Shown in pieces: positions 86 to 18,428 of a stretch of 64,000 nucleotides of DNA. How positions within the stretch are numbered: position 1 is the first letter of the stretch; each line of letters opens with the position of its first letter. Source of the stretch: a virus (lineage: Duplodnaviria; Heunggongvirae; Uroviricota; Caudoviricetes); IMG/VR virus record IMGVR_UViG_3300037467_000966. One strand, 5' to 3'. A program made the translations under genes and the position numbers. The notes under the pieces were generated by a model. It worked only from the letters and a program-made list of their open reading frames with translations, had not been told where the DNA came from and did no database searches.

Positions 86-3000
86 TTACTGAGGTGTAAG
101 AAGATGTTTGTTAACCCGTTTGGGAATAGTTATCTTCTTGACGATGATACTTCTTTCATCATATTGTGGGTTATACTTCGTGTAGCAAGTCAGCTTGACC
201 ACAAGGTCTTTCTTCAGCTGGTCTGCAACCGTAGCATATACATCAGGGAATAAGACCATGCGCTTATTGCCTTCTAATGTATCGACATTAATAAATGCCA
301 TTGTGTCACCTTTCTTAGTCGGCATCACTTTGAATGAAGTCAAGATGCCGCCCGTGTTGACGTTCTCGTAGTCGCCCAGGTAATCCCAATTCACTGGCTG
401 AGAAACATCGGAGAGAGGATTACCAGAGACATAAAGCCCCAGTAATTCCTTCTCTGCTTCCAGTCTAACCTTATCAGTGAATCCATTGATTTCGTCAGAC
501 AAGTCATCCTTATCTCCACGAATCATGTACAATTGCTGCAGGATGTCCATACGGTTCAATGCATCCTTGCCCAGCTCGTCCAGCGCACCAGACCTTGCTA
601 GGACTTGAATGCTCCGTTTGTTAAGCTGCTTTTTCGGAAGTGTTTCAACCAGGTTCTGCAGACTTGTATATGGTCTTGCTTCCATAATATTAGATATTAC
701 TGCTTCGCCTAGTCCTTTGATAGCTGCTAAACCGAAACGTATATCATTACCTTCAACGGTAAAACCTACACCTGATGTATTAATGTCAGGCGGCAGGATA
801 TTGATTCCCATTCGCTTACATTCATTGATGTAGTTAATAACCTTTTCTTCCTTGTCTGCACCAATGGTTAATAGAGCTGTCATGAACTCTATTGGATAGT
901 ACGTCTTGAAGAAGGCAGTCTGATACGCAATGAAGCTATAACAAGCCGCGTGGGACTTATTAAACGCGTAGCCTGCGAACGGACGGATGTCATCACATAT
1001 ACGCTTGGCAACGTGCTGTGGTGTGCCGTGTTCAATCATCTTTGCTTCCAGCTCCTCTAAAGCTGGCTCTAAGATTTCCTTCTTCTTCTTACCTACGGCT
1101 TTACGTAGTACGTCCGCTTCGCCTTTCGAGTATCCAGCCATCCGTTGGGACACTATCATAACCTGCTCTTGGTAAATCATGATACCGAAAGTCTCTTTGG
1201 TAATGGCATCATACTCTGGATGTAAAGCTGGAATGTCTTCTTGACCATTCGCACGACGCTGGTATTGCGGAATATAATCCATCGGGCCTGGACGATACAA
1301 TGCGTTTCCAGCTACCAGTGTGTTGAAGTCTACCTTGTTCATTCCTCTGAACATCTTCTTCATACCATCTGACTCAAACTGGAACACGCCGTCAGTCCAT
1401 CCGTCTTTAATGGTCTGGAATACTTTCGGGTCTGTAGGCTCTAAGCTATCTGGGTCAATGTCAACGCCGTGACGTTCCTTTACAAGGCGTCTGGCAATAT
1501 CAACAACCGATAAGTTCTTTAAACCTAAGAAGTCAAACTTAATGTATCCGATTGACTCTAACGTTGGCCCTTCATACTGGGTAACACGCTCACCGTTCTT
1601 ACCACGCATTAATGGAGCTGCCTTTGATACTGGGTCAGGCGTGATTAACATACCACAAGCATGGATAGATGCAGAACGCGGAAGCTTCTCTACCTTAGAG
1701 GCTAACTCAAACAGTTCAGGATACTGACTGATATACGGCTGTAAGTCCGCGACTTCTTCCATCGCATCTTCAATGGACATAACCTTTCCTTGATGAACAG
1801 GGATTAGCTTATTCATGTCATTGATAATGTTGTGGTCAATGCCTAGACCGCGGCCAATATCTTTGAATGCTGCTTTTGTGGATAAGGTAGTGAACGTACC
1901 AATCTGTGCTACTTGGTCGGCTCCGTACTTCTCTGTAACATAATCAATAACTTCATGTCGTCTGAGGTAGTCGAAGTCCGTATCAATATCTGGGAAGCCA
2001 GGTCGCTCTGGATTAATGAAACGCTCAAACAGCAAATCATATTTGATGGGGTCTAAGTTTGTAATATGAAGCAGGTAACAGACAAGAGAACCAGCACCAG
2101 AACCACGGCCTGGGCCTACTAATATCCCATTGTCTTTCGCATACTTAATATAATCCCAAACGATTAATAGATAAGCTGAAATGTTTTTCTTGGCAATAAT
2201 ATCAAGCTCATAGTTCATCCGTTCCTGGTACTCAACAATGTTGATATCTCTGTCCATTGCTAATTCAAATAAGGCTACGTTACATAGCTGTGCAATGTAG
2301 GTATCAAATGTATGTCCAGATGGAACATCAAACTTAGGGAACTTAATGTCGCCCAGTTCTAATTCCACATTACACTTCTGAGAAATCTGGTACGCATTCT
2401 CTAGTGCTTCATGTGGGATGCCAAAGTCGAGCATCTCTTGAGCACTCATGAAGTAACAATGCTCATACACAGAGATGTCTGAAGCGTCCTCACTGCGTCC
2501 AATTGTTGTTAAGGCAGCGTGAATAGGCTTCTCTTCTTTGCGTAGCATATGGGCGTCTGAAGTGGCTACAAGCGGGATGTTCATCTCGACTGACCATTGT
2601 CTCAGAACCTCATTGACCAATATTTGTTCAGGCATGTCTGACGGTTGAATCTCAAGATACAATTCATCAAAACATTTCTGATAGAAGCGAATCAGGTTCT
2701 TCGCTACTTTATACCTGCCTCTTTGAATCAACTGAGGAACTTCTCCGCCGAGACAAGCAGTTGTGGCAATAATTCCTTTGCCATATCTTTTAATCAGTTC
2801 ATAGTCTGCGCGAGGCTTACGATAGAAGCCCTCCAGCTGGGCACGACTGGTCAGTTCCAGTAAGTTCTCATAGCCTTCATTTGTTCTTGCAATCAGAAGC
2901 ATATGAGCCATATTTGGACGCCAGCCAGTTTGATTCTTTTTGTCAAACCAGAATCCAGGCTGCTTGTCGTACTCCTCTTTCTTCCATGTCCTGTGCGGTG

Positions 3001-3283
3001 TGAGATAAATCTCGTTACCCAGAATAGGTTTTAATCCAGCCTTCTTCGCCTTCGTATAGAATTCAATATGCCCATGACAAACACCATGGTCCGAAATACC
3101 TATTGAATCCATTCCGTATTCTTTGGCAAGCTCGATTAAGTCATCAATCCGACAGAATCCATCCAACAAACTCCATGGAGTATGAAGATGCAGATGCGTA
3201 AAACGTACCGTACTAAAAACATTGTACGGAATATTAGTGACTTCCTGTTTAGTATCAACAGCAAACGATAAATCGTGCGTCAC
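86..3283 (-). CDS. dnaE: DNA polymerase III alpha subunit, DnaE family (PHP domain, polymerase core, C-terminal OB fold)
   Basis: 1065-aa ORF. N-terminal PHP motif HLHLHTPWSLLDG...SDHG. Long collinear polymerase body and a C-terminal OB-like segment typical of DnaE. Confidence 0.9.
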   Translation of the reverse strand: MTHDLSFAVDTKQEVTNIPYNVFSTVRFTHLHLHTPWSLLDGFCRIDDLIELAKEYGMDSIGISDHGVCHGHIEFYTKAKKAGLKPILGNEIYLTPHRTWKKEEYDKQPGFWFDKKNQTGWRPNMAHMLLIARTNEGYENLLELTSRAQLEGFYRKPRADYELIKRYGKGIIATTACLGGEVPQLIQRGRYKVAKNLIRFYQKCFDELYLEIQPSDMPEQILVNEVLRQWSVEMNIPLVATSDAHMLRKEEKPIHAALTTIGRSEDASDISVYEHCYFMSAQEMLDFGIPHEALENAYQISQKCNVELELGDIKFPKFDVPSGHTFDTYIAQLCNVALFELAMDRDINIVEYQERMNYELDIIAKKNISAYLLIVWDYIKYAKDNGILVGPGRGSGAGSLVCYLLHITNLDPIKYDLLFERFINPERPGFPDIDTDFDYLRRHEVIDYVTEKYGADQVAQIGTFTTLSTKAAFKDIGRGLGIDHNIINDMNKLIPVHQGKVMSIEDAMEEVADLQPYISQYPELFELASKVEKLPRSASIHACGMLITPDPVSKAAPLMRGKNGERVTQYEGPTLESIGYIKFDFLGLKNLSVVDIARRLVKERHGVDIDPDSLEPTDPKVFQTIKDGWTDGVFQFESDGMKKMFRGMNKVDFNTLVAGNALYRPGPMDYIPQYQRRANGQEDIPALHPEYDAITKETFGIMIYQEQVMIVSQRMAGYSKGEADVLRKAVGKKKKEILEPALEELEAKMIEHGTPQHVAKRICDDIRPFAGYAFNKSHAACYSFIAYQTAFFKTYYPIEFMTALLTIGADKEEKVINYINECKRMGINILPPDINTSGVGFTVEGNDIRFGLAAIKGLGEAVISNIMEARPYTSLQNLVETLPKKQLNKRSIQVLARSGALDELGKDALNRMDILQQLYMIRGDKDDLSDEINGFTDKVRLEAEKELLGLYVSGNPLSDVSQPVNWDYLGDYENVNTGGILTSFKVMPTKKGDTMAFINVDTLEGNKRMVLFPDVYATVADQLKKDLVVKLTCYTKYNPQYDERSIIVKKITIPKRVNKHLLTPQ

Positions 3284-4637: not shown

Positions 4638-5425
4638 AAGATGTTTTCCCCTTTTTGATGTGTTTATTTATCACTATCTTTGCCTCCTTTTGTTTAACAA
4701 ATACAATGGGACTTCAGCTCAACTGAATACCTGCCACTCAGTTATTTCACGTATATACTCGTACTCGGTCTTCACTACTGAGGGAATGCGCCACCACTCG
4801 CCGTGGGATTACACGTCTTACATATACTTCGTCTACTAGCCACTGACTTTCATAGGGAATTTTAGGGGCGGACAGTGCCGTGACCCTTGGCTCTTCTATT
4901 GCTTGGGCGTCCCTTGCATGACATGAATTCGGTTTATCTAGCAGTACGAATTTTTTCGTGGCTGGCAACTAAGCCTCCATTAGCCGAAGCTAAAGCTAGG
5001 TACAGTCTAGAATGCCGCCTAGACCGCAGCCAGTAGTTCCCTACTTATCTTCCCCTTACTAGAGATTCCTAATATCTTATGTCAGAACACAGTATGAATT
5101 CTCATACCGTCAGCTCACATAAGATTAACTTAGATTTCGGATAGGCTGTCAGGTCACGCTCCTTCATTTATCTGCTGGTGCATCCCCCAGCTAGCACCTA
5201 CGCATCCTAATCTCTAAGTAAGACAAGAAGACTTCAGATATGTCGTCACGGATATTCTTCGGCCCACCGTGCTATCCCAGCCGATATATATGGGATTACT
5301 AAAAGTTCTTGGCATCTTCTTTATCTGGTGACGGGGTTAGTTTTTGGAAGGAGAATAAACCGTCATATCTCCTGGCTCTGGTCAACATTTTTTATTTAAG
5401 CGGGAAAGCTGCCAAACAAAACCCT

Positions 5426-5512
5426 TGGAGCTGCCAGGAGGATTCGAACCTCCGACCTCTCCCCGTCGATGTGGACTCTTGGGGGAGTATTCTACCGCTG
5501 AACTACAGCAGC
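5426..5512 (-). tRNA. tRNA-like gene with encoded CCA. Canonical acceptor, D and T arms, but a 19-nt anticodon loop (12-nt insertion). Anticodon possibly AAG if the insertion lies after position 37.
   Basis: Minus-strand read GCUGCUG-UA-GUUCAGCGGUAGAAU-A-CUCCC[19 nt]GGGAG-AGGUC-GGAGGUUCGAAUCCUCC-UGGCAGC-U-CCA. The 7-bp acceptor stem pairs (two GU), and the T loop UUCGAAU is canonical. Confidence 0.5.
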
Positions 5513-5619
5513 ATATAAAAGACACCCCGCGAAGGGTGCCCCAGTGAAAAAATTATTCTGCCTGCTCGTAGTATTTCTCTAGGATGTTTTGGATATCCAC
5601 ATATGGAAAACTTTCTGTG

Positions 5620-5823
5620 TTATACATTTGCATCATTCTCCTTTTTCTTTTTCTTTAATTTATGCAAACCGAAATCAACAAGCGCATGTAAACCAAACCC
5701 AAGAAGGAATAGTTTAATAAGCCCGAAGAATCCAGTGAAATTAAATCCAAGATTAATTAAAGCTGTTGCAATAATAACGTACAGGATAGCGGCAATAATG
5801 AATCGTAAGTTACGATGACTCAT
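5620..5823 (-). CDS. Small hydrophobic membrane protein
   Basis: 67-aa ORF with two predicted TM stretches and a lysine-rich C-terminus. Abuts the vWA gene stop. Confidence 0.4.
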   Translation of the reverse strand: MSHRNLRFIIAAILYVIIATALINLGFNFTGFFGLIKLFLLGFGLHALVDFGLHKLKKKKKENDANV

Positions 5824-6614
5824 TACAATACAACACCTTTTGATTTCGCTTGACGTAACCAGTTAGGGAATTCTTTTAATACGGCTTCGTAAAGCTTCTC
5901 GTCAGCAATTCCATTCACATCTGAAATCTTTGTGAAGTCAGCGTTGTCTAAGTAGCGGCCTGTTAAATCATCCAATGATTGCAGATAGTTGAATGACTCA
6001 TTGCCGATACCGATGAACTGCCAGAAGATACCCTGCTTAGCAGCCTCAGTAATCACACGAGTTGTTTCAGAACGGTCACCATTGTCACCATCTGTCATGA
6101 AGAATACCAGTGTAGGAATCTTAACAGGCTTTACATCTTCAGGCATAACCGTCTTGCTTACTACTTCTGTTACGGTCTTTGATTTTGCACCGAACAGTTT
6201 GCCAAGGAATCCAGCTTCCACTTCTTTTGTTACTTCTTCTTGAACAACTTGTGGAGTGATAGCTGTGCCGTACTTAGCAATAATTTGTTTCATTACTGGA
6301 GCATACTCCGTACCACCAGATGCACGAAGACCCTTCTTCTTTAAGAAGTCTTTGTGATTGCTTTCATTGGCAGAACCAATATATTCATAGCCATGATTGA
6401 AAGCATAGATGTCGATTGATTTGTTTGGGTCCATGTTCATTCCAACGCCGATGAAGCGGTCAGCTTGTTCTTGAACATTCCCTTTGTCAATTTCCCATCC
6501 CATAGAACCTGATTTGTCGATAGCGAATACGATGTTCGCTTGAAGACCAGCAAGCCCTAACTTCTCTAATACGATTGCAGATTTCTTTTTTAAATCAATT
6601 ACGTTACCCAACAT
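5823..6614 (-). CDS. von Willebrand factor A (vWA) domain protein, TerY-like
   Basis: MIDAS motif VFAIDKSGSMG followed by ...FFMTDGDNGD. Sits next to the TerC/TerD genes. Confidence 0.8.
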   Translation of the reverse strand: MLGNVIDLKKKSAIVLEKLGLAGLQANIVFAIDKSGSMGWEIDKGNVQEQADRFIGVGMNMDPNKSIDIYAFNHGYEYIGSANESNHKDFLKKKGLRASGGTEYAPVMKQIIAKYGTAITPQVVQEEVTKEVEAGFLGKLFGAKSKTVTEVVSKTVMPEDVKPVKIPTLVFFMTDGDNGDRSETTRVITEAAKQGIFWQFIGIGNESFNYLQSLDDLTGRYLDNADFTKISDVNGIADEKLYEAVLKEFPNWLRQAKSKGVVL

Positions 6615-6619
6615 GTTTC

Positions 6620-6660
6620 TCCCCCTAGAAATTAGTAAAGCGGCCCCGAAAGACCGCTTA
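6620..6660 (-). terminator. Intrinsic terminator-like hairpin after terC
   Basis: aagcgg-ccccgaaaga-ccgctt stem-loop, then an A/U-rich tail on the transcribed strand. Confidence 0.45.
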
Positions 6661-6730
6661 TTTAAAGAATCGTCTGATAGCTCTGATGGCTCTGTCTATA
6701 GATGTAATCATGCTGATAAGTTGTCTGATA

Positions 6731-7483
6731 TTACGCGGCAACATTTTTCTTGCTGCCCTTGTTCTTTAATGCGTGAACCACAAATGTTAATCCAAATGTG
6801 ATGATTAAAACAATAAAGAATAACCAGTCTGGAGCTTCATATGAAGTCCAGTGTTGACCGATAAGGTTACCTACTTCATGCAGTTCAGTTACAAACATCT
6901 TAACCGCAATCAAGAAGATAAGAACGAATGCTGTTCCTTCCATCTCTGGAACCTTATTGATAAGCTTAATGAATACACCTGCAACAGAACGCATCATTAA
7001 GATACCAAGGATACCACCAGCGATTAATACATAGAAGCTTTGAGATAAAGCAAATGCTGCTAAGATACTATCAACAGAGAAAGCAATGTCCATTAACTCA
7101 ACAGAGATAATTGTTGTAACGAATGGCGACAAGCCAAGCTTACCAAAGAATGCTTGAACCTTGTTTTCTTCGAACTCGTCATTGATACCATCGCCGTCTT
7201 CGTCTTTCTTCTTAGAGGCAAAATGCTTAATAGATAAATAAGCAAGGTATAAAGCACCAACTGTTTTGATGGCCCATAAGTATTCCCAATCAGCGATATA
7301 AGCCCAGCCGAAGATACATACAGCACGGAAGATAATCGCGCCCCACATACCATAGAAAAGTGCTTTCTTTTGCTGACTAAGTGGTAATCTCTTTGTCATT
7401 ACTGCAAGTACTAATGCATTGTCTGCGCTTAGCAAACCTTCAAGTACGACTAACGTAACTACTAGTCCAATGATTGATAACAA
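6731..7483 (-). CDS. terC: TerC-family integral membrane protein
   Basis: Multi-TM 250-aa ORF with the TerC signature LLSADNALVLAV near the N-terminus. Confidence 0.85.
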   Translation of the reverse strand: MLSIIGLVVTLVVLEGLLSADNALVLAVMTKRLPLSQQKKALFYGMWGAIIFRAVCIFGWAYIADWEYLWAIKTVGALYLAYLSIKHFASKKKDEDGDGINDEFEENKVQAFFGKLGLSPFVTTIISVELMDIAFSVDSILAAFALSQSFYVLIAGGILGILMMRSVAGVFIKLINKVPEMEGTAFVLIFLIAVKMFVTELHEVGNLIGQHWTSYEAPDWLFFIVLIITFGLTFVVHALKNKGSKKNVAA

Positions 7484-7634
7484 CTATTCCAACTCCCTAA
7501 TTAATATTTGTTTTTGATTTTGTCCACTACATGTTTTGCTGCTGCCTTCACATTATCGTGAAAGAAGTGACCTACCACATAACCAACCACGAATGTAAGA
7601 ATCGTCCCTGACATCTTCATTCCCCCTGTAGATA

Positions 7635-7672
7635 TAATATCTATATATAAGAAAGGGCCGAAGCCCTCTCGT
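7635..7672 (-). terminator. Intrinsic terminator after terD (RNA hairpin GAGAGGGC-UUCG-GCCCUUUC plus U/A-rich tail)
   Basis: gaaagggccgaagccctctc inverted repeat immediately downstream of the 7676 stop. Confidence 0.55.
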
Positions 7673-7675
7673 ATT

Positions 7676-8257
7676 TTAAGCGACTGTTAATCCATAATCT
7701 TTAACGAAACCAGCTAGGCCATTTGCATAACCAGCACCGATAGCGTTGAATTTCCATTCGCCGTTTACTTTATAAATCTCACAAACTGCTACTCCAGTTT
7801 CAATAGAGAAGTCCTCACCTAAATCAAAGCGAAGGATTTCTTCATTTGTGATTTGGTCATACACGCGGACATAAGCATTGGATACTTGTCCGAAGTTTTG
7901 AGAACGACGCTCTGCTTCATAGATAGTTACTACGAAAGCAAGCTTCTGAATGTAAGCAGGCATTACTGAAAGGTCAACTTTGATTGTCTCATCATCGCCC
8001 TCTGTGCCACCAGTCAACTCATCCCCTGAGTGCTCAACTGCACCAGAAGCATGACGTAGATTATTATAGAATATAAAGTCGCCTTCGTCACGAGTTTTAT
8101 TTAATTCATTAACCATGAATACTGAAACATCCAGGTCAAAGTCTGCTCCGCCAGCATACTTATTTGTATCCCAGCCTAATGCTACATTAATCTTTGAAAG
8201 GTTTGTTCCTTTCGTTAAATCAACACGTTGCCCTTTTTTTACCAACTCAACTGCCAT
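7676..8257 (-). CDS. terD: TerD-domain stress/tellurite-resistance family protein
   Basis: GWDTN...GADFDLDVSVF...GD..TGGTEGDDETIKVDL...FVVTIY.A...QNFGQVSNAYVRV..GEWKF.A.GAGYA.GLA is a near-textbook TerD. Confidence 0.9.
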   Translation of the reverse strand: MAVELVKKGQRVDLTKGTNLSKINVALGWDTNKYAGGADFDLDVSVFMVNELNKTRDEGDFIFYNNLRHASGAVEHSGDELTGGTEGDDETIKVDLSVMPAYIQKLAFVVTIYEAERRSQNFGQVSNAYVRVYDQITNEEILRFDLGEDFSIETGVAVCEIYKVNGEWKFNAIGAGYANGLAGFVKDYGLTVA

Positions 8258-8388
8258 GATTCATTTCCCCTTTTCATAAAAGTCTTTTACTTCCATCCAT
8301 GCTTTTTTATAACCATAGTCATGACCTAAACAAAAGCCACCAACGACTGCGATGGTGACTATGCCTAGCATCTTTAACACTTCAATCA

Positions 8389-9006
8389 TTAGTTGATTCC
8401 AGCTACATAAGCCTCAAGACCGCCGCCGTAACCAGCGCCAACAGCTTTGAATTTCCAATCTCCACTGTGCTCATAAAGCTCACCAATAACCACGCAAGTT
8501 TCAATTGAGAAGTCCTCTGATAAGTCATAACGAGCTACCACTTCACCAGTTCCATCATTGACTACTTGCACATACGCATTGTGTACTTGACCAAAGTTTT
8601 GGTTACGTGTTGCTGCATCATAGATAGTGATAGCAAAACGAACAAACTTTGCAGCGATAGGAAGCTTCGCTAAATCAATTGTTACTGTTTCATCAGGGCC
8701 AGTACCTTCACCAGTACGGTTATCCCCAGAGGATACCACGCTGCCCGTAGGGTCACTTGGATTATTGAAGAATACGAATGAGTTCTCAGATATGATTTTG
8801 CCTCCATCACCTAAGATTGCAGCAGATGCATCTAAGTCAAATGCAGAACCGTCATACTGATTAGCATCCCAACCTAATTCCACTTTGAATTTTGTTACTC
8901 CTGGTACTGATTTTGTAAGATTGATGTTACCGCCTTTTTGCAAATTAATCATTTTGTTATTCCTCCCAATTTTTCTTTTGATTTTTTCTTGAATATATTT
9001 TATCAC
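8389..9006 (-). CDS. terD: TerD-domain protein (second paralogue)
   Basis: LGWDANQYDGSAFDLDASAAIL...SGDNRTGEGTGPDETVTIDL...QNFGQVHNAYVQV...GDWKFKAVGAGYGGGL has very high similarity to canonical TerD. Confidence 0.9.
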   Translation of the reverse strand: MIKYIQEKIKRKIGRNNKMINLQKGGNINLTKSVPGVTKFKVELGWDANQYDGSAFDLDASAAILGDGGKIISENSFVFFNNPSDPTGSVVSSGDNRTGEGTGPDETVTIDLAKLPIAAKFVRFAITIYDAATRNQNFGQVHNAYVQVVNDGTGEVVARYDLSEDFSIETCVVIGELYEHSGDWKFKAVGAGYGGGLEAYVAGIN

Positions 9007-9786: not shown

Positions 9787-10047
9787 TCAATACTCCTTAC
9801 TTAGTAGCATTGCAGCGCCCTTATTGCTCTTTAAAGATTCGCTTAGGTACAATGGAGTAAACCCACGGTCAAAGGTTAGAATGCCTTCCCAACCTGCGTA
9901 CAAGCTGCCGTAGTTTTCTACAAGTCTAAAAGTTCCTTCGCATTTGTTTGGGGCCATACTAATTAACTCAAGCTTATGAAAGCTATACTCATATACCCAG
10001 CCAACTTTAAAACGATTGCCTTGTGAGTCACGTCTTTCTGGTGGCAT
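9787..10047 (-). CDS. KEW-tail family small protein (C-terminus ...AAMLLSKEY)
   Basis: First member, in transcription-terminal position, of a tandem array of small proteins sharing the C-terminal LL(S/D)KEW peptide. Confidence 0.55.
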   Translation of the reverse strand: MPPERRDSQGNRFKVGWVYEYSFHKLELISMAPNKCEGTFRLVENYGSLYAGWEGILTFDRGFTPLYLSESLKSNKGAAMLLSKEY

Positions 10048-10048
10048 G

Positions 10049-10342
10049 TTACCACTCCTTACTTAATAAATTAACGGCTTCTTTATTTGATTCAATAGCA
10101 ATTTCAACGGCGTCTTCTGCTGTTATACCTAGTCCTACTCCATTGCCCATAGGAACATTCATCCTACGTACAAACTCGGAGTAGTTATAATCATCAGGTT
10201 CCAAGCGGAGAACCTTCTCATTATCTTCACTAGGAATTACCCGATAGCCACCATTAGATTTCTTTTCTACATCAAAGACTTAACCTATCATTTTTTTATA
10301 CCACTTGCTAGTGGAAGAAATACTTTTAATTCGTACTTTCAT
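10049..10342 (-). pseudogene. KEW-tail family member interrupted by an in-frame TAA after codon 20 (nonsense pseudogene, or shorter product from an internal start)
   Basis: Minus-strand frame reads MKVRIKSISSTSKWYKKMIG*VFDVEKK...NKEAVNLLSKEW. The stop follows an A7 tract and the same frame continues to the family C-terminus. Confidence 0.5.
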
Positions 10343-10343
10343 C

Positions 10344-10652
10344 TTACCACTCCTTTGAAAGCAATCGCTTTGCTTCCATATTGTTTTTCGCTTGAGGAAA
10401 CATCAGGTCTTCTTCAGGATAAGAGTTCCTATAAGTTAGCGCATCCTGCGGCCAATCTTCTGGAGCCACTACGCGAATATCATACCACCATCCTGTCTTG
10501 AAATCACCGTCGTCCCAGAACACATCTAAGATTCTAGCTTGTGGTGTCTGCCAACTGCCGAGTTGCTTTATGTAATAAGCCTTTGGCTGTAGCGTAATGA
10601 TATCGCCTACCTTAAAGTTAGCCGTCTCCTTGCTCGGTCTATTTCTTGCCAT
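10344..10652 (-). CDS. KEW-tail family small protein (...EAKRLLSKEW)
   Basis: 102-aa ORF with the C-terminal family motif, tightly packed against its neighbours. Confidence 0.6.
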   Translation of the reverse strand: MARNRPSKETANFKVGDIITLQPKAYYIKQLGSWQTPQARILDVFWDDGDFKTGWWYDIRVVAPEDWPQDALTYRNSYPEEDLMFPQAKNNMEAKRLLSKEW

Positions 10653-10653
10653 C

Positions 10654-10959
10654 TCACCACTCCTTGCTTAAACGTTTTTTCGCTTCTTGATTTGTTACTG
10701 GAGGAGCTTCCGCCAACATCAAATCTATATCGCGATAATATAATTCATCTTGGGTTTCATCTTCCCAGAGGACAGAATATTGAAAGTGCTTAAAGTGTTT
10801 AGAATACTTTCCTTCTATCTCTCCTTGGTGACATCTACCCACAATGGTTCCGACAACAGCATATTCTTCTCCATTGTCACCTTCTCTTTTGTTTTGTTCG
10901 TACCACTCTGAATCATCTGTAAGTAGTACTTTCTCTCCTAATTCATACATACCTACCAC
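10654..10959 (-). CDS. KEW-tail family small protein (...EAKKRLSKEW)
   Basis: 101-aa ORF. The true start is probably ATG at 10948-10950 (MYELGEK...). Confidence 0.6.
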   Translation of the reverse strand: MVGMYELGEKVLLTDDSEWYEQNKREGDNGEEYAVVGTIVGRCHQGEIEGKYSKHFKHFQYSVLWEDETQDELYYRDIDLMLAEAPPVTNQEAKKRLSKEW

Positions 10960-11171
10960 TCCTTGTCCAATAGGGTAGAAGCCCCTTTGTTATTACTAGA
11001 TACAGGAGCTAAACATGATAGAAAAGAATGACATTCTACGCCATTGTCCCATTTAATACGAGGACTTTCTTTTCCTTCTCCTTCTATAATGGTTCCTGTC
11101 ATACCAACTGGAACATTATATCCTGGGTGTACATACTTAATTCGTTTGACTCTTTGACCTTTGTAATACAT
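10953..11171 (-). CDS. KEW-tail family small protein (...ASTLLDKEW)
   Basis: Start adjusted to the internal ATG (MYYKGQRVKR...) just after the upstream gene's stop. The longer track ORF overlaps its neighbour out of frame. Confidence 0.5.
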   Translation of the reverse strand: MYYKGQRVKRIKYVHPGYNVPVGMTGTIIEGEGKESPRIKWDNGVECHSFLSCLAPVSSNNKGASTLLDKEW

Positions 11172-11172
11172 T

Positions 11173-11445
11173 CTACCACTCCTTGTCCAGCAGCCTAGCA
11201 GCTTCCTTATTACTAGAAGAAGGAATAGAAATAATCCTATCTCCATATGGGTCTAGCCTGTGAGACACTACGCTGCCAAGCCAGCCGCATCCTTTTGGCT
11301 TTCTTACAATCGTTGCCATGTTAGCATGGTCATCCCAGGCCAAATCCCTTGGCAACTCAAAATCCATTCCAATTGCATCCATAGAAATAGATTTCCTTTT
11401 ATTCTGCCCTATGCGGATAATCGTTCCTTTTGGAAGCTTCTTCAT
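11173..11445 (-). CDS. KEW-tail family small protein (...EAARLLDKEW)
   Basis: 90-aa ORF, first gene of the tandem array. Confidence 0.6.
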   Translation of the reverse strand: MKKLPKGTIIRIGQNKRKSISMDAIGMDFELPRDLAWDDHANMATIVRKPKGCGWLGSVVSHRLDPYGDRIISIPSSSNKEAARLLDKEW

Positions 11446-12044
11446 ACCATCACTCCTTGAATAAAAAAAATTCTTTACCCAATAGAAAGTACAAACAAGA
11501 TAGGATTCGAATCAGCGTGTGCATGCCCCAGGTTAGCAGCTAAAGGAAACCATAGGTTCCTCCACTCATCTAATACCTATCATTGATAAGAGAACGTCAG
11601 ACCAGGCTGGTAATTTCTAGGCATGCATTTAACCCCACCTGTACCATGAGGTCACCTACAACGTCTTGGAATTCTCTTATGCGTACTCTCTATTCAGTAA
11701 AGAATTTAAAAAGCTCCTTGGGCAGGAAGAAAATAAGATACAATCATAGGCTTCAGTGCTTACCATCCGACAGTGGGACTCGAACCCACACGCCTCTCGG
11801 CGGACAGAGCTATCTCCGTCTGCGTCTGCCAATTTCGCCATGCCCGATGGGGCTTACTTGGCACCTATGATATGGAGAAGAACTTCGGATTGGTGTCTAT
11901 TGCAGACCCCAGAAGGAATCGAACCAGCTACTTTCCGCTTATAGGCGGCTGTTTTACCCAATAAACTATGCGGGCCTCCACTACACCGTAGTTCCTGGCA
12001 TTCTTCTCATTCTTATTCTCTACCTGCCCAAAGAGCAAGTAACC

Positions 12045-12602
12045 TTATTTACCTAGTATGTGTTCAACAATATCACTGACTCCGTGGAATCCGTAAATCA
12101 TTGTAACACCGTCAAGCTTTTCAAGCTCCTGATTCCAATGATGACTAGGAACCAGAACAGGTCGCCCTGTCTTAATCCAATCTACCACATTATGGATAGC
12201 ATCGTCAATTAAAATGTCCGCATTAATTAGGTCTTTCCTAGATGCCGTAATAAAATTCCTTTGTGGAATGAATGGAAGATTCTTTTGCAACCAGTTCCAC
12301 TTACCACCTACTGCGTTAGGAAAAGCAGACGTAACAATAATGACATCATAGTTTTCAGTAAGCTTCTTTAGTTCAGGAACAACATATTCATCAACCAGTT
12401 CCAGGCTTTCATAAGTCGCTGGGTCATTCAGATAAGATATTAAATCATAGTCAGGATGAAATACCTCATGTTTAAATGCCGCCATCTGTTCGTATTCTAA
12501 TTGATGGTCTGGGTGAAGAATATTGTGGTGTTCCATAATCCGTTTCATTAAATAAACAATTGTGTCGTCCATATCAACCGCGACGATTTTCTTTTTCTCC
12601 AT
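12045..12602 (-). CDS. 5'(3')-deoxyribonucleotidase (HAD superfamily, NT5C-like)
   Basis: N-terminal HAD motif I VAVDMDDTIV, with size and layout of dNMP nucleotidases. Confidence 0.8.
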   Translation of the reverse strand: MEKKKIVAVDMDDTIVYLMKRIMEHHNILHPDHQLEYEQMAAFKHEVFHPDYDLISYLNDPATYESLELVDEYVVPELKKLTENYDVIIVTSAFPNAVGGKWNWLQKNLPFIPQRNFITASRKDLINADILIDDAIHNVVDWIKTGRPVLVPSHHWNQELEKLDGVTMIYGFHGVSDIVEHILGK

Positions 12603-12645
12603 GTTAAGCCTCCCTGTAAATCTCTCTATCTATTGTACCAACTTA

Positions 12646-12990
12646 CTATTTTACATTCCATTCATATTTTTTCAAGAGGGATTTAGCCTCCGTATTCTTT
12701 TCAATGAATGGTTCGGCTTCATTCTTGCTAATCCACATCCACGGCCCTCTCTCATAACGCTCAGGCAAGTCGGAACTACGGTATGTTCGAATAATCTTAC
12801 CTACTCTTACATCGCCATCACTAATAAAAGTGCCAGTAGTTTCAACTCCTGTATGAACCAAGTACCAGCCGTACTTTGGGTCGCTGTCGTGTTCGTGTTC
12901 TTCAATGTAGACTTCTCGAATAGGATTCTGATTAAGGCTATCTCGAATATCACTGCTCCAATGATTCTGAACCTTTACGCGAACCTTCAT
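12646..12990 (-). CDS. KEW-tail-related small protein (...EAKSLLKKYEWNVK)
   Basis: 114-aa ORF. C-terminus is a variant of the family motif with a 3-aa extension. Confidence 0.5.
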   Translation of the reverse strand: MKVRVKVQNHWSSDIRDSLNQNPIREVYIEEHEHDSDPKYGWYLVHTGVETTGTFISDGDVRVGKIIRTYRSSDLPERYERGPWMWISKNEAEPFIEKNTEAKSLLKKYEWNVK

Positions 12991-13019: not shown

Positions 13020-13937
13020 TTACGCAGTAGCCTCCGTCTTTTTAGCAGGAACTTTCTTCGCTGGAGTCTTCTTTACTTCCACTTCAGCCTTTGGTTCTTC
13101 AACTGGTTCTGGTTTTAAGAAACGTGCCTTATTCAGCTTGGTATCAAAGCTCATCGTTTGTGCATTGAAGGTAACGGCATGAGTCTTTAATCCTTCACCC
13201 TGTCTTGCGTCAGCTGATAACACTGTATTGGCAAAACCTAATGCTAAGTTCGCTGCCGTTTGGTTCGTAAAGATGTTCTGAGGATTGCTCACGGCCCGCT
13301 CCGCACAACTCATTTCATGTGGAAGTTTATCTGTTGCCTCTAGAATCTCTGGATACATATCCGCTACGCTTGGAAGATTGAATAAGTGAGGAACCTTTTC
13401 GCCCTTCACAAAGTCACGTCCAGCATTGTAACCAACAACAACTTGACCAGCCCACTCTTCATTTCCCATGTCCAGCCAGAACATACCTTTTGTTTCCTTG
13501 AACACTTCATTCACAATCGCACGAGTCTTATTGTTATCCACCGCACCGACTACGAAAGGAACCAAGTTATGCCGATTAACAATTTGCTTTAACATCTTTG
13601 GCCCATCCAGATATTCTCCAATGATGGTTACCTCAACACCGAACGCACCGCCATAACGCATGCCCATGATTTCAGCTTTGTTATGACCAACATCTCTTGG
13701 CAAGAAGTTCTGACGTGTTAAGTTCTTATCCTCAACGCTGTCTGCATCAATGATAGTTACTGCATGCAATGCCTTGTTCTCCAGCTTAAGCATTCTGTTT
13801 TGAAGACTGATTTGACGAATTAATTGTGGAATAAAATAACCGCCGTTGCCGCCTGCTCCAATAATAATCCAATGCTTTGCCTTCTTTGCTTGTACATCCA
13901 AAGTATAAGTTGGTTCTAATGCCATTGATAAATCCAT
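13020..13937 (-). CDS. E1-like ubiquitin-activating enzyme (ThiF/MoeB fold)
   Basis: Rossmann motif WIIIGAGGNGGY, then IIDADSVEDKNLTRQNF...DVGHNKAEI (the E1/ThiF ATP-binding and arginine-finger region). K/P/E-rich C-terminal tail. Confidence 0.8.
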   Translation of the reverse strand: MDLSMALEPTYTLDVQAKKAKHWIIIGAGGNGGYFIPQLIRQISLQNRMLKLENKALHAVTIIDADSVEDKNLTRQNFLPRDVGHNKAEIMGMRYGGAFGVEVTIIGEYLDGPKMLKQIVNRHNLVPFVVGAVDNNKTRAIVNEVFKETKGMFWLDMGNEEWAGQVVVGYNAGRDFVKGEKVPHLFNLPSVADMYPEILEATDKLPHEMSCAERAVSNPQNIFTNQTAANLALGFANTVLSADARQGEGLKTHAVTFNAQTMSFDTKLNKARFLKPEPVEEPKAEVEVKKTPAKKVPAKKTEATA

Positions 13938-14007
13938 GATTAATTCCTCCTAGTTTTTGTTTTGTTCCTTAATTGAAGTAAGAGCAGCCAAAGACTGCCC
14001 TCTCTTC

Positions 14008-15294
14008 TTAATCTAAGAACCAATCATTACGTTCGCCATGAAGATGACCATAACCGCTGTTCTCAGTCATTGTATCACTCACAACGTAATCGTACCCAAG
14101 GTCAATCAGCTCTTGAACGATTTCCTTAACGGTCTCTTCCACTTCGCCAATTGATTTAGTGTCGTCTCCCAGATTTTTTTCCAGAAAAATTTCGACTTCT
14201 GTTCTCGGCTCGCTGCTTGCGCTTTTGCTCGCGCTGCTCCCGCTTAGTGATTCTTTTTTTTTAGAATCTAAGCCTTGTGCTTTCGCATTAGCTGCCACAA
14301 TATCATCCTTGTTCGCTCGTCCCCCTGGTGAGCCATGGTAGCCATAGCCGCCAGATGTCCCATACCCATAGTAGTCCCACTCGTCCCCCCACTTGTCGTA
14401 ACTGGGAGATGTCCCTGTCCCCGACTTTTTTGCGTGATAGTTGTAACCTCCGTAAGAACGAGAGTGTTGTCCCATCCAATCGTCTGGAGCTTCAACACGA
14501 GGCCATGGTCCTTTAAATGATTTGTGTTCTACTTTTTCTTCGACTACTGGTTCGAATCCTTCTACTGGTACAGTAGTTGTTACCAGTGTCTTGATTTCTA
14601 CTTGAGGAATATCAAACAGCAAAGCTGGGTCAATGTTTACGCGTGTGCCGCCACATACCCAACGGAATAAGAAGTTTGGTTCATCCTTGTCGATGTTGCC
14701 CCATACTCCGTAGAACTGAGTCATGTTTTCATTGGCATCATCTGTACCAGACCAGAACGCTCCCATCGTATGGTGGCTGTGCGTCTCACATAATGGTGTG
14801 CAATTCTCACGAAGATAATTCACCATCCCATCCTGATGGAACTCAGATAATGAACCAGAGTTCTTTTGCTGTGGACAATACACAATCAACTGTCCATCTT
14901 CAATAAGGCCCTTGATGTCTGTGCCATCTGTATACTTTGGTGGCAGCTCCACATTATCATGATTCCAGAAGAACAATGCGCTGGCTTCTGTCTTATCCTT
15001 CGTATGAACATCACGATAGAAAGTTAATACCATGATTAGATACTTCAAAGGAATCTTTGGAATCAATAACTCTGGACCTTCTTCCATTGATTCAAGACCT
15101 GGAATTGCTTTGTCCGCTGGGATATCTGAAAGCTTTACTTTGAATAAAGCAACAGGAGTCTTCACCACTCGGAAGACCCCGTTACGTGCAACAACGATAT
15201 TGGTTGGTTTATCATAAGCCTCAGCTGGTTGTGGACCGAAGTGCTTACCTACTAATTGACCTGCTAACATTGCGGTTAAATCTAAATTTGCCAT
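14008..15294 (-). CDS. JAB/MPN (JAMM) metallopeptidase with long low-complexity G/Y/S-rich C-terminal region
   Basis: Perfect JAMM motif E...HSHHTMGAFWSGTD (H-x-H-x7-S-x2-D). Confidence 0.75.
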   Translation of the reverse strand: MANLDLTAMLAGQLVGKHFGPQPAEAYDKPTNIVVARNGVFRVVKTPVALFKVKLSDIPADKAIPGLESMEEGPELLIPKIPLKYLIMVLTFYRDVHTKDKTEASALFFWNHDNVELPPKYTDGTDIKGLIEDGQLIVYCPQQKNSGSLSEFHQDGMVNYLRENCTPLCETHSHHTMGAFWSGTDDANENMTQFYGVWGNIDKDEPNFLFRWVCGGTRVNIDPALLFDIPQVEIKTLVTTTVPVEGFEPVVEEKVEHKSFKGPWPRVEAPDDWMGQHSRSYGGYNYHAKKSGTGTSPSYDKWGDEWDYYGYGTSGGYGYHGSPGGRANKDDIVAANAKAQGLDSKKKESLSGSSASKSASSEPRTEVEIFLEKNLGDDTKSIGEVEETVKEIVQELIDLGYDYVVSDTMTENSGYGHLHGERNDWFLD

Positions 15295-15336
15295 TTTAAA
15301 ATTCCTCCAATTGTTTTAGTTTTTTGTTTGATTATC

Positions 15337-16095
15337 TTAACGTAAATACTGTTCACCATGACGACGAATGGCATCGCCTAAACGAATTGCTGGCTGTAAA
15401 ATATCATTCTTGAATCGTGGTGTTTCCCCTTTTGCGTCTGCTTCTTTACAGATTCTGTCCATGTATTGCAGTAAGTGAATCGTTCTCTCACGTACAATAC
15501 GTTGACCGTTTACCGTATCTTCAAAGCGCTCAAACTTGCCGCCATCTAAATCATTATTAAATGGATTAGCGAAGAAGCGGTCTGGAACAGTCATGATGGA
15601 TTTAGAACCACCAAGCGCTGGGTAATCAGACTCAGAACCCCAGCATAGGTAACTATGATTAGAGTTCGCAAATGGGAATGTATACAATTGGTCATTCAAG
15701 CTAAGCACAGGTTGCTTAATCGCATATGCTACTCCGTGGCGATACCGACGCGTATCATTTGCTGGGTTGTGCAAAACATGAATAATCCAAACTGCTGCTG
15801 GTGCTACAATCTGAAACTCAGGGAACGCATTCTCCCCTGTCTCGCTTCTCATATCAAACTTGGCAATGTGCCTTGTCTCTGGAGTTGCGATAACATACTG
15901 TTCCATGTTATTAACCTTTGTATATTTTTGTACGCCAAAACCATAAGGAAGAAGCGGCGATTCAATCCGCTCACCTCTGGTTAGGACTTCTTGAATTGCT
16001 TGAACATTTGTATTTTTGATTGAGCGCTCTCCATTACGGATAACTTCAATCTGAATACTATCTGGATTTAAGTGAATACTTGTGCGGTTTTCCAT
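15337..16095 (-). CDS. Putative E2-like (UBC-fold) conjugating enzyme
   Basis: FPFANSNHSYLCWGSESDYPAL aligns with the UbcH5 active-site region [23 protein letters not shown] (NSN-x-S-x2-C followed by S-x-W/Y-x-PAL). Adjacent to JAB and E1. Confidence 0.45.
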   Translation of the reverse strand: MENRTSIHLNPDSIQIEVIRNGERSIKNTNVQAIQEVLTRGERIESPLLPYGFGVQKYTKVNNMEQYVIATPETRHIAKFDMRSETGENAFPEFQIVAPAAVWIIHVLHNPANDTRRYRHGVAYAIKQPVLSLNDQLYTFPFANSNHSYLCWGSESDYPALGGSKSIMTVPDRFFANPFNNDLDGGKFERFEDTVNGQRIVRERTIHLLQYMDRICKEADAKGETPRFKNDILQPAIRLGDAIRRHGEQYLR

Positions 16096-16107
16096 TTCAA
16101 TTCCTCC

Positions 16108-17811
16108 TTAGAATGGTAAATCTTCTTCGTAAGTGTACTCTTCAATTACATCAAATGGCAGATGGTAATCATGGATTGCAACCCTTGCTCCATTGCTTAT
16201 ACCAGCGTATACGCATGCAGCATCAAGCTCACGGAAACGTCTTACATCCCCGCCTTCACGAATAACTACATAGCGCTCTAGTGGAATCGCTCTGCCGTTC
16301 ACATAGATGCCAGGTGCTGTTGCCCGCGGTGGTTCTGCAGTTGGTTCAGCTTGTACAACTTCTTCCACCTGAGCATTTAATCGAGCAATCAACTCATCAA
16401 ATGGCGTCTGCGTTGGAACTTCTTCCACCACTGGTTGTGCTGGCTGAGCTTGCAACTGTTGACGAAGTTGTTCAGCTAAAGCATGACGGCGTTCAGCATT
16501 GGCTCTCGCTTCTGCTTCTATACGCTGACGTTCTTGCTCTTCCAACTCTTGGAGTCGCGCTTCTTCCTCTTGGCGTCTTATGCGCTCAGCTTCCTGACGA
16601 GCACGTTCTTGTTCCATCTCACGACGGATTTGCTCTTCACGCTGACGACGTTCTTCTTCTAAACGAAGTCTTTCTGCTTCTTGACGAGCACGCTCTTCTG
16701 CCTCTTCACGCTCCTTCTGAATACGCTCCTGCTCTAACCAAGGCTCAATCTCAGCCTCCGCCTCACGACGGATACGCTGAGTAACCTCTAGCAACTCAGT
16801 ATGTCCTTCTGGCAATAAGTGCTTCCAGAATTCCATATTAAATTCAGCATAGATGTAATCTTGGATAACGATTGGAGCAACACCATTACGGCTACGGTCA
16901 CCAGTCATATCAATGCTGGTAACTTTACCCCAACCTTGCAGCTCATAACCTTCTGGCTCTTGGTAACCATCGAATGGTGGCAATGCAATCCATCCTTCTT
17001 CTTCAGAACCTGATGGAGCCATAACCTTTACCTTGAGTCCTGTAGGCACCATTTCCGCCGCTGTAGGAGCGACAGCATATTCAGGAGCCTTACCATTCTC
17101 TCTTGCCCATTCAAGGAACTTGTGAGCAAATAAGCGGTCTGTTGCATCAGCTGATTCTTGAAGCTGAACCGCTGGCTTGAATAACTTCTCCATCACCCTG
17201 CGGCTATAATCTCGAAGCTCAGTGCGGATACGCTCTAATCGTTCTTGCTCACGGCGCTGAATCTCTGCTTCCATTAACCTTGTAACTTCACCATGGATTG
17301 CAGCTAGCGCAGAATCCTTACTGTACTCAGCATCAATCCAGTTAACAAAATCAACTAGGCCAGACTGAATGAATTGATAGATGCGATTGGTCTTGAACGG
17401 AATGTACAAGAATGTATTCCCGTTTCTTTCTTCGCGGCGAACCACATAACCAGATTGAAAAGAATTACGATTGTCTCTCATTCTCCTATAAAGCTGATTG
17501 TGGTTCTGCTCAAACCAAGACTTCCATTCAGGTTCACTATTATAGATTTCTCTTATCTTGTTAGCTTTCCTGTGGATGTGACTATCAAGACGTAGAGAAT
17601 AACTATGTTGGTTCTGTCTAATGCGACAGCCAGGGAACTTCTTCTTTAGATAAGCGAACACTAAATCTTTCACTATCTCTTCTTCCTGTGCTCCTGTTTG
17701 TGGAAGCGGCGGAAACTCTTCAATGTATTGCTTGTTGGCAAGTAGCCTAGAACTCATTACAAAGTTTAACTTGCTGACTAATGCGGTTGCATTAACTGTC
17801 ATGTCCCTCAC
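16108..17811 (-). CDS. Large hypothetical protein with long E/R/Q-rich coiled-coil segment
   Basis: 567-aa ORF inside the Ubl-E2-JAB-E1 operon. Candidate adaptor, E3 or target. Confidence 0.6.
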   Translation of the reverse strand: MRDMTVNATALVSKLNFVMSSRLLANKQYIEEFPPLPQTGAQEEEIVKDLVFAYLKKKFPGCRIRQNQHSYSLRLDSHIHRKANKIREIYNSEPEWKSWFEQNHNQLYRRMRDNRNSFQSGYVVRREERNGNTFLYIPFKTNRIYQFIQSGLVDFVNWIDAEYSKDSALAAIHGEVTRLMEAEIQRREQERLERIRTELRDYSRRVMEKLFKPAVQLQESADATDRLFAHKFLEWARENGKAPEYAVAPTAAEMVPTGLKVKVMAPSGSEEEGWIALPPFDGYQEPEGYELQGWGKVTSIDMTGDRSRNGVAPIVIQDYIYAEFNMEFWKHLLPEGHTELLEVTQRIRREAEAEIEPWLEQERIQKEREEAEERARQEAERLRLEEERRQREEQIRREMEQERARQEAERIRRQEEEARLQELEEQERQRIEAEARANAERRHALAEQLRQQLQAQPAQPVVEEVPTQTPFDELIARLNAQVEEVVQAEPTAEPPRATAPGIYVNGRAIPLERYVVIREGGDVRRFRELDAACVYAGISNGARVAIHDYHLPFDVIEEYTYEEDLPF

Positions 17812-17816
17812 CTCTC

Positions 17817-18368
17817 TTAAATAAAGTCAATAGATTCAACTGCTACTGTTCTTGCACGAGTTATTTGATTCACAAAGCCAACGACTTGTCTTTCTACTTC
17901 TGGCAAACGACGCTGTATCTGATGCTTAAAATCATTAAGTTGACTATCATTGTAACGACTAAAGTCCTGAACGGTTTGTGCATTGTTTATCGTTTCAATG
18001 ATTTGTCTTAGGTCAGATGTCAGCAAAAATCTTTCCCGTTCACCCTCAAGGTCATTACAAATCCTTGCGATGTCTGGTAAGAATCCATTTGCTTCCCAGT
18101 GGTCAGCAGGCTCTTCATTCCTTACTACTTCTACTTCCACTGCTGGTCTTGCCTGTACTGCTTCTTCTGGATTCACTTGTTCATTCCTCCTTAGTGATTC
18201 ACATCTTTGACAAACTCGATAATGTGAATAAGAATCTCTATCAACCGTTTGGTTGCTGAAGCCTTGACCGCAATACATTCTGTCGCCGCTTCTTCTAATA
18301 TGAAGAACTCGCGTTGTATTACTTGGAACATACTCAATCGTTGCTACCATCTCTACACTCCCTTTCAT
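17817..18368 (-). CDS. Hypothetical protein with N-terminal Cys cluster (C-x19-CxxC), possible zinc-binding module
   Basis: 183-aa ORF directly downstream of the hexa-repeat gene. Confidence 0.55.
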   Translation of the reverse strand: MKGSVEMVATIEYVPSNTTRVLHIRRSGDRMYCGQGFSNQTVDRDSYSHYRVCQRCESLRRNEQVNPEEAVQARPAVEVEVVRNEEPADHWEANGFLPDIARICNDLEGERERFLLTSDLRQIIETINNAQTVQDFSRYNDSQLNDFKHQIQRRLPEVERQVVGFVNQITRARTVAVESIDFI

Positions 18369-18428
18369 AAAAAAATAGAGGGCCGTGCATAAGCAAGCAG
18401 CCCTCTACCTTTTGTCATGGTATCCAGA

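Follow-up and report, generated by a model that had tools for sequence, protein, structure and literature searches.

The window analysed here is the whole 64,000-nucleotide (nt) stretch of IMG/VR virus record IMGVR_UViG_3300037467_000966 (Caudoviricetes). Its Ter cassette, at 5620–8952 on the minus strand, encodes two TerD proteins (TerD-b and TerD-a), a TerC protein, a von Willebrand factor A (vWA) domain protein and small membrane open reading frames (ORFs). All of these genes are co-directional and span no more than 3.4 kb; stop and start codons overlap, and the order of the four Ter genes is TerD-b, TerD-a, TerC, then vWA (Table 1). The four Ter ORFs had been called in a first-pass annotation made from the sequence alone. 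Each was confirmed here far above the Pfam threshold, and the motifs quoted in that annotation can be read in the TerC, vWA and TerD-b sequences.

TerD with Ca-binding motifs, TerC, a TerF-type vWA with a metal ion-dependent adhesion site (MIDAS) and conserved clustering are all present, which makes this a Ter 'hub' cluster (TerD / TerC / TerF-type vWA) in the sense reportedly given to the term by Anantharaman, Iyer and Aravind in 2012. It had been described as a 'complete Ter set', which it is not. Neither the ORFs flanking the cluster nor about 30 other ORFs of the window gave a Pfam match to TerB, TelA/KlaA or TerA, TerZ, TerE or TerF paralogues, short ORFs not having been scanned exhaustively, and Ter-type biosynthetic enzymes were likewise missing among the ORFs scanned. 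None of the Ter-type phosphoribosyltransferases (PRTases), ATP-grasp proteins or HAD phosphatase of a complete ter operon adjoins the cassette. The window cluster is an abbreviated TerD/TerC/TerF-vWA hub, not a complete ter operon.

Table 1. Features of the Ter cassette, followed by other annotated genes of the window.
Feature	Coordinates	Strand	Description
TerD-b	8389–8952	−	187 amino acids (aa); PF02342 2.1e-67; mechanical ORF reaches GTG 9006
42-aa ORF	8261–8389	−	single-pass membrane; between both TerD genes; hydropathy 2.15
TerD-a	7676–8257	−	193 aa; PF02342 6.8e-74; GDELTG loop variant
Hairpin 1	7647–7674	−	GC-rich, UUCG loop, directly 3' of TerD-a stop; RNAfold −14.4 kcal/mol
37-aa ORF	7501–7614	−	single-pass membrane; directly upstream of TerC; hydropathy 1.5
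TerC	6731–7483	−	250 aa, TTG start; integral membrane; PF03741 3.6e-48
Hairpin 2	6638–6659	−	GC-rich, in TerC-vWA spacer; RNAfold −12.8 kcal/mol
vWA	5823–6614	−	263 aa; PF10138 vWA-TerF-like 4.1e-52; intact MIDAS site
67-aa ORF	5620–5823	−	two transmembrane (TM) segments; weak Pfam 2TM match 0.0017
NAMPT	25562–27091		NF006629, 539 bits
Prs-like	27499–28377		TIGR01251, 84 bits, below cutoff
HAD-like	27084–27512		weak match
NT5C (HAD-type)	12045–12602		
KEW-ending ORFs	9787–10047, 10049–10204, 10344–10652, 10654–10959, 10953–11246, 11173–11445, 12646–12990	−	
RlaP-like RNA-repair nucleotidyltransferase	28601–29341		
Phage sigma factor	31252–32682		phrog_351, 2.5e-78
ArsC-family protein	35396–35899		
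tRNA nucleotidyltransferase	41629–42882		phrog_2244, 1.1e-98

TerD proteins

Both TerD copies had been said to match the TerD Ca-binding core almost motif for motif. For TerD-b this is true in full: its sequence contains GWD, FDLDASA, GDNRTGEGTGPDE, QNFGQV.NAY and GDWKFKAVGAGYGGGL, and GDNRTGEGTGPDE is the canonical Ca-binding loop. TerD-a departs from the core in this loop, having GDELTGGTEGDDE instead of GDNRTG. At the 8017–8034 region, the phage TerD-a lineage has GDE[LR]TG, versus GDN[RLV]TG in the sampled bacterial TerDs, and the difference is a clade-specific substitution of a conserved Ca-loop residue in phage TerD-a. By sequence, TerD-a matches PDB entries 3IBZ (8e-56) and 2KXT (4e-53), the structures from which we take TerD to be a Ca2+-binding protein.

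The most likely start of TerD-b is the ATG at 8952, and the GTG at 9006 is unlikely, because the ATG has a ribosome-binding site (GGGAGGA) 8 nt upstream and gives an N-terminus like those of the orthologues in contigs L008 and L097. These orthologues are 68% and 61% identical to TerD-b, respectively; contigs L095 and L009 have none.

TerD-a and TerD-b are 46% identical to one another. Their relationships were examined in a neighbour-joining distance tree with 500 bootstraps and limited bacterial sampling, in which the deep branching is uncertain. The two were sisters in 0 of the 500 bootstraps, which, with their low identity, rules out a recent tandem duplication. The clade of TerD-a includes copies from other jumbo-phage contigs (95% bootstrap) and those of LysYB1 and YungSlug, both Herelleviridae (81%); TerD-b forms a clade with the L008 copy (97%), its link to LysYB1 copy 1 being weaker (65%). 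Both fall outside the bacterial position-1, -2 and -3 groups (YceC-, YceD- and YceE-like), and the YceC-like clade (97%) excludes both. Judged from this tree, TerD-a and TerD-b are probably old paralogues, each in a phage-only lineage that is shared with Herelleviridae.

vWA protein

The first-pass label for the vWA protein, TerY-like, was rejected on the Pfam, PADLOC and Foldseek results. The protein belongs to PF10138, a Pfam family built on the C-terminal vWA domain of TerF, in which this domain is fused to a TerD domain and which is known from ter operons and among actinobacterial stress proteins; the window, by contrast, has TerD and vWA as separate genes, with TerC between them. No kinase or PP2C gene of a TerY-P triad lies beside the vWA gene, whose neighbours are TerC and the 2TM ORF, and no PADLOC defence-system model, TerY-P included, is matched by any of the Ter proteins. 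The AlphaFold2 model of the protein (pLDDT 93.6) has its best Foldseek matches in the copine-type vWA domains of RGLG1/2 and BON1 (E 3e-11, TM ~0.6), in line with a weak Pfam Copine match. The vWA is thus of the TerF-C-terminal/copine type, not TerY. Its resemblance to the copine-type proteins, among which RGLG1 has a MIDAS with Ca2+ or Mg2+, is structural – identity is only ca. 15%, and the window protein has no C2 or RING domains.

The MIDAS is intact, as had been reported: residues 33–37 read DKSGS (D33-K-S-G-S37), and D33, S35, T102 and D175 are invariant, T102 and D175 across 35 homologues. Distant homologues of the vWA (P0306–P0324) are natural TerD+vWA fusions of 411–457 aa, and therefore a functional partnership between TerD and vWA is supported.

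A β-hairpin insert that the copine-type proteins do not share, at residues 122–156 (about nt 6147–6251), is tipped by a conserved GFLGKLFG. Within the vWA-TerF family a similar motif changes place: phage and Bacillales proteins have it at the hairpin tip, P0271, P0275, P0278, P0283 and P0295 at the very N-terminus, and P0304 at the C-terminus. A likeness to MinD-type amphipathic membrane-targeting helices was considered for this motif; its helical hydrophobic moment is low (0.14), and the idea was left as speculation.

TerC, small membrane ORFs and expression signals

TerC contains EGLLSADNALVLAV and belongs to the YkoY/MeeY-MeeF subfamily (NCBIfam TIGR03716, 237.6 bits against a cutoff of 138.5, 1.2e-70). 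A Mn2+-sensing yybP-ykoY riboswitch is typical of genes of this subfamily. Neither this riboswitch nor any other cis-RNA was found between 5400 and 9500 (Rfam, gathering score or E<=1).

Three small ORFs encoding putative membrane proteins, which the first-pass annotation lacked, are interleaved with the Ter genes. The start of the 42-aa ORF overlaps the TerD-b stop (TAATG), and its end is 3 nt short of the TerD-a start. JGI contigs L005 and L007 carry this ORF as a called gene, but it is not conserved, L008 having an unrelated 96-aa ORF in the same place; the hydropathy in Table 1 is its best 17-residue Kyte-Doolittle mean. In the window, L095, L008 and L097, the 37-aa ORF stands at the same place and has exactly the same length; against the L095 copy, its aa identity is 73% and the ratio of non-synonymous to synonymous substitution rates (dN/dS) is 0.21. 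The start of the 67-aa ORF overlaps the vWA stop codon (TAATG), and its two hydrophobic segments have hydropathies of 2.6 and 2.0. This 2TM ORF also follows vWA in L095 (52% identity, dN/dS 0.16) and in L008, with an H.LVD motif; it is absent in L097.

The hairpin after TerD-a was called as terminator-like at 7670–7651 and may be either a terminator or a transcript-stabilising element. The hairpin in the TerC-vWA spacer was not called a terminator by the consensus scan. A scan for sigma-70 promoters found 12, versus 10.9 expected from shuffling, and no promoter is claimed.

The cassette region has a tRNA gene on either side, both on the minus strand, at 5429–5512 (Rfam 51.7 bits) and 11904–11975 (31.4 bits). 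ARAGORN gave abnormal anticodon loops in all three of its tRNA calls, the third of which (11764–11848) is unconfirmed by Rfam.

The cassette in phage genomes

The window is uniformly coded on the minus strand, with a GC content of ca. 40–44% and no compositional break. Its DNA polymerase III (Pol III) alpha subunit (86–3283) is 60–61% identical to those of KLEB27-3, WH1 and Edson, which are cultured jumbo Bacillus phages. A 693-aa protein is 68% identical to its counterparts in Edson and WH1, and an 837-aa protein has phage matches only in Edson, WH1 and KLEB27-3, at 33% identity. On these similarities, the window comes from an uncultured member of the Edson/WH1/KLEB27-3 clade.

Ter proteins identical to those of the window were found on 9–10 contigs from several JGI and Logan samples, including contigs of 50–526 kb. 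The order of the cassette is the same in L005, L008, L009/L010, L095 and L097. In L008, L009, L095 and L097 it lies near genes for RNase H and Pol III or for DnaB and holin. L008 (205.7 kb) encodes the cassette along with a ribonucleotide reductase (RNR), ligase, Rad52, amidase, DnaB and holin. L009 (223.6 kb), deposited under Bacillus stercoris assembly GCA_030143775.1, has RNase H, a split Pol III alpha and many small ORFs. L095 is syntenic with the window from the JAB and ThiF genes through to RNase H, and L096 and L097 are further phage-like contigs with a diverged cassette. The Ter cluster had been taken as part of the phage replicon, and this is borne out by its phage-like flanks and by its recurrence in phage contigs; the signs of host DNA, an assembly chimera or a prophage edge that would have spoken against it were looked for and not found.

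The 3.5-kb cluster had no megablast match in 50,697 phage records, so there is no near-identical deposited phage. An IMG/VR scan with a single protein, TerD-a, confirmed no relative. Several assemblies labelled 'Bacillus' hold contigs of ca. 205–240 kb with phage-type TerD or TerC (P0014, P0131, P0147, P0152, P0156, P0224), and these contigs resemble jumbo phages or large mobile elements that were co-assembled and annotated as bacterial.

Ter genes in other phages

The first-pass annotation considered a Ter set unusual in a virus. This was overstated: tblastn searches of deposited phage records found TerD in 101, vWA in 257 and TerC in ca. 21, and equivalent sets have been published. The phage records with TerC are mostly Herelleviridae of the Bacillus group (CP-51, JL, Shanette, YungSlug, LysYB1/2). 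All four Ter proteins of the window fall in PHROG families 5698, 7180 and 5359 (TerC in phrog_7180, vWA in phrog_5359).

Klebsiella phage phiKp34 encodes terC, a terF-C-terminal vWA, two terD genes and telA (PMC8386662). Acinetobacter phage ME3 has a near-complete Ter system, and Caulobacter jumbo phages have abbreviated TerD/TerC/TerF/TelA operons (Iyer et al. 2021, PMC7824862). The Jug gut jumbo phages have three terD genes with high transcription, along with a gene for a Ca-ATPase (PMC12880540). The window resembles phiKp34, the Caulobacter jumbo phages and ME3 in its component set (two TerD, TerC and a TerF-type vWA), in the clustering of these genes and in belonging to a large virulent genome. 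It differs from them in that TelA and Ter-type PRTase and HAD genes are missing among the ORFs scanned, in its Gram-positive host and TerC of the Bacillales YkoY/YceF subfamily, and in the tight contiguity of its genes, with micro-TM ORFs interleaved. The TerDs of proteobacterial phages are only ca. 28–38% identical to those of the window.

The closest deposited phage homologues are in Lysinibacillus phages vB_LfM_LysYB1/2 and Bacillus phage YungSlug (Herelleviridae), with 62–67% identity for TerD-a, 55% for TerD-b and 47–49% for TerC. These phages share the order TerD-b, TerD-a, TerC, which is contiguous in LysYB1, and LysYB1 also encodes a vWA-TerF. However, they belong to another phage family with genomes of ca. 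145 kb, their TerC is unannotated, and the vWA gene of LysYB1 is 7.5 kb away rather than adjacent. The cassette of the window adds a well-characterised example to a phenomenon that has already been described for jumbo and other large phages.

Origin and selection

An alignment of TerC against 185,579 species-representative genomes returned only Bacillales, at 45–54% identity. Bacterial TerDs next to TerC share no more than 62% identity with the phage copies, and the best bacterial homologues of the vWA are 40–45% identical. Of 80 Bacillales loci retrieved, most carry TerD, in one or three copies, immediately upstream of TerC; a vWA-TerF gene rarely adjoins them. The Bacillales yceCDEF-type operon is similar to the phage cassette in that TerD stands directly upstream of TerC, which is of the YkoY subfamily and on the same strand; identities are 47–62%. 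Unlike these bacterial operons, the phage cassette has two TerD genes, in clades separate from the bacterial ones and without a YceC-type copy, and it includes the vWA and micro-TM genes. Its TerD, TerD, TerC layout copies the yceCDEF-type stress operon, with the vWA and two or three micro-membrane proteins appended.

Whether the TerD copies are host-derived, and recently so, was a question raised in the first-pass annotation. They were not captured recently: the TerD lineages are phage-only, with 81–97% bootstrap support. By these comparisons the cassette is an old module circulating among phages, not a recent acquisition from a host.

The window genes were compared with those of L095, L097, L008 and L009, at 53–89% aa identity. 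The dN/dS was 0.05–0.11 for TerD-a, 0.17–0.20 for TerC and 0.13–0.15 for vWA, with dS near saturation so that the ratios are approximate. Ratios of 0.05–0.2 correspond to purifying selection, and therefore the genes are functional.

In L009 (11440–12176), the vWA gene is broken into ORFs of 94 and 151 aa, while the near-identical Logan contig L010 has an intact gene of 245 aa (1919–2656) and the same TerD; the break is a frameshift or pseudogene, or else a sequencing error. In Edson (L003 6769–9093) and WH1 (L004 6764–9088), vWA-TerF has a glutathionylspermidine-synthase-like (ATP-grasp) gene on one side and a glyoxalase gene on the other, so that the same vWA stands in another accessory setting.

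Prs, NAMPT and HAD genes

The window also encodes Prs-like, NAMPT, HAD-like and NT5C genes, and the co-occurrence of such genes with the Ter cluster had been put forward as worth attention. The genes exist, but the metabolic link is not supported, since they are of canonical NAD-salvage types and the Prs/NAMPT block is 16.5 kb from the cassette, with ca. 20 unrelated genes between. The Prs matches canonical ribose-phosphate diphosphokinase, and no Ter-specific PRTase, ATP-grasp or lyase family was matched among the ORFs scanned. There is no Prs or NAMPT gene within ca. 8–10 kb of the cassette in L001, L002, L008, L009, L095 or L097. NAMPT systems in jumbo phages have been explained as a means of NAD+ replenishment (PMC7824862).

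Two large Bacillus elements with integrase, RNR and DnaB genes have a different arrangement. In L011 (4810–11911) and L012 (1704–11856), Prs-NAMPT stands directly before TerD(-TerD)-TerC, a DHHA1-like gene and a NupC-family nucleoside transporter. This adjacency is a weak lead, for which the co-occurrence is not entirely dismissed.

Possible function of the cassette

Our preferred reading, held tentatively and at a little below an even chance, is that the cassette is a functional accessory Ter hub, long resident in phages, that stabilises the divalent-cation balance and the envelope of the infected cell. TerC and the small TM proteins would insert into the membrane of the infected cell, where TerC would act like MeeF and MeeY of B. 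subtilis, as a low-rate exporter of divalent metals (Mn-type) and a metalation factor. Both TerD proteins, which would be cytosolic, would bind Ca2+. MIDAS-containing vWA domains are metal-dependent adaptors, and the vWA of the cassette may assemble with the TerD proteins beneath the membrane. Such an assembly would keep the balance of divalent cations and the integrity of the envelope steady over the long infection cycle of a jumbo phage, and the virus factory would thereby be shielded from chemical and membrane stress and probably also from secondary attack. Because the riboswitch is absent, expression of the cassette would be set by the phage and not by the metal status of the cell. [quoted passage not shown]

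Several points weigh against a role in cation balance and envelope stability. TerD-b is missing in L095 and L009, and Edson and WH1 have no TerD or TerC near the vWA and are not among the TerC matches; the cassette is therefore dispensable. The Ca-loop residue of TerD-a is altered, from GDN to GDE, and a membrane-binding role of the GFLGKLFG tip is unsupported, given its hydrophobic moment. TerC moves Mn out of the cell, not into it, and what the phage gains from this is hard to see. We know of no experiment on any phage Ter gene.

The main rival explanation is that the cassette is a device for superinfection exclusion or inter-phage competition, altering the membrane against DNA injection by rival phages or against cell damage. 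This is possible, though rather unlikely; it is compatible with the cation and envelope reading, and the two are not mutually exclusive. The cassette has many membrane components, and it is accessory and patchy in the manner of conflict genes. Iyer et al. 2021 proposed competition with superinfecting phages, together with xenobiotic tolerance, as the role of Ter systems in jumbo phages (PMC7824862). On IncHI2 plasmids, ter genes confer inhibition of phages ('Phi') and resistance to pore-forming colicins (Whelan 1995, as cited in PMC8386662), but these phenotypes were mapped to larger terZABCDEF operons in Enterobacteria, not to a TerD/TerC/vWA subset in Bacillus, and the PADLOC defence models match no cassette protein. 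It is improbable that the Ter genes are instead the sensor and effector arm of a nucleoside-like or NAD-related pathway with Prs, NAMPT and the HAD proteins. All of these enzymes are encoded in the window, Prs-NAMPT is beside TerD-TerC in L011 and L012, and in ME3 TerD is beside PRTase-HAD-PRTase genes. However, L011 and L012 are mutually syntenic and amount to roughly one observation, the two blocks are far apart in the window and not linked in the six other loci examined, Prs and NAMPT are of canonical types with no Ter-specific enzyme family among the ORFs scanned, and NAD+ replenishment already accounts for the NAMPT of jumbo phages.

Two further explanations would deny the cassette a role in the phage. 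The Ter genes could be host DNA, whether from a chimeric assembly, from the border between prophage and host or through very recent capture, and the gene order is indeed like that of the host yceCDEF operon, with some database copies labelled Bacillus stercoris or B. subtilis. The 'Bacillus stercoris' copy that was examined, however, is on a 224-kb contig with phage-like content; phage genes lie on both flanks of the window cassette, on the same strand and with no break in composition; the identical cluster occurs in multiple independent samples and is syntenic in diverged phage contigs; and the best bacterial identities are 45–62%, with the TerD clades phage-only. Host origin of the DNA is effectively refuted. 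It is very improbable as well that the cassette consists of decaying passenger genes with no current function. Its absence from Edson and WH1, the loss of TerD-b in some lineages and the frameshift-split vWA of L009 would agree with decay. Against this, dN/dS is 0.05–0.2, all of the ORFs are intact, the metal-binding and catalytic motifs are invariant, and the vWA is intact in L010, which is near-identical to L009.

Other features of the window

A candidate ubiquitin-like conjugation operon at 13020–19508 on the minus strand may be more novel than the Ter cluster. The ORF at 18429–19508 (359 aa) consists of six tandem repeats of ca. 58 aa, RVVVYGSNRLNVED...EIRFTVKAGTKG, with a summed Pfam Prok_Ub match of 5.9e-30, and in sequence the protein resembles a polyubiquitin-like precursor. 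Downstream of it on the same strand are three ORFs with no assigned family (183, 567 and 252 aa), a Prok-JAB protein (14008–15294) and a ThiF/E1-like protein (13020–13937; PADLOC E1-E2 1e-6). JAB and ThiF are kept in L095. None of the proteins of this operon has a PHROG match.

Between this operon and the Ter cassette, at 9787–12990 on the minus strand, is an array of small paralogous ORFs (ca. 50–115 aa) with C-termini of (N)KEA..LLSKEW, LLDKEW or RLSKEW. The one KEW-ending ORF that was searched has no Pfam or PHROG match. At the position in L095 that matches this array (4708–8300) there are 13 consecutive ORFs of 76–97 aa. Other accessory genes identified in the window are given at the foot of Table 1.

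Implications

Beyond a general role in cation balance, the phage-only TerDs (one with a remodelled Ca loop, GDE[LR]TG), the copine-like vWA with its GFLGKLFG motif, mobile in position, on the β-hairpin arm, the riboswitch-free TerC and the 37-aa and 2TM micro-proteins could form a phage-specialised membrane complex that actively controls divalent-cation flux or the state of the membrane. We regard this as unlikely. If true, such a complex might block the injection of rival DNA or neutralise membrane-depolarising abortive-infection effectors, and it might be coupled to nucleoside or NAD salvage, as hinted by the Prs-NAMPT-TerD-TerC-DHHA1-NupC blocks of L011 and L012. Ter genes are among the most widespread bacterial genes associated with stress and defence that still lack a mechanism. 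With five to seven small genes, strong conservation and no riboswitch, this minimal cassette could serve as a reduced system for the TerD-TerC-vWA hub, in a host genus with excellent genetics and characterised TerC proteins (MeeF/MeeY).

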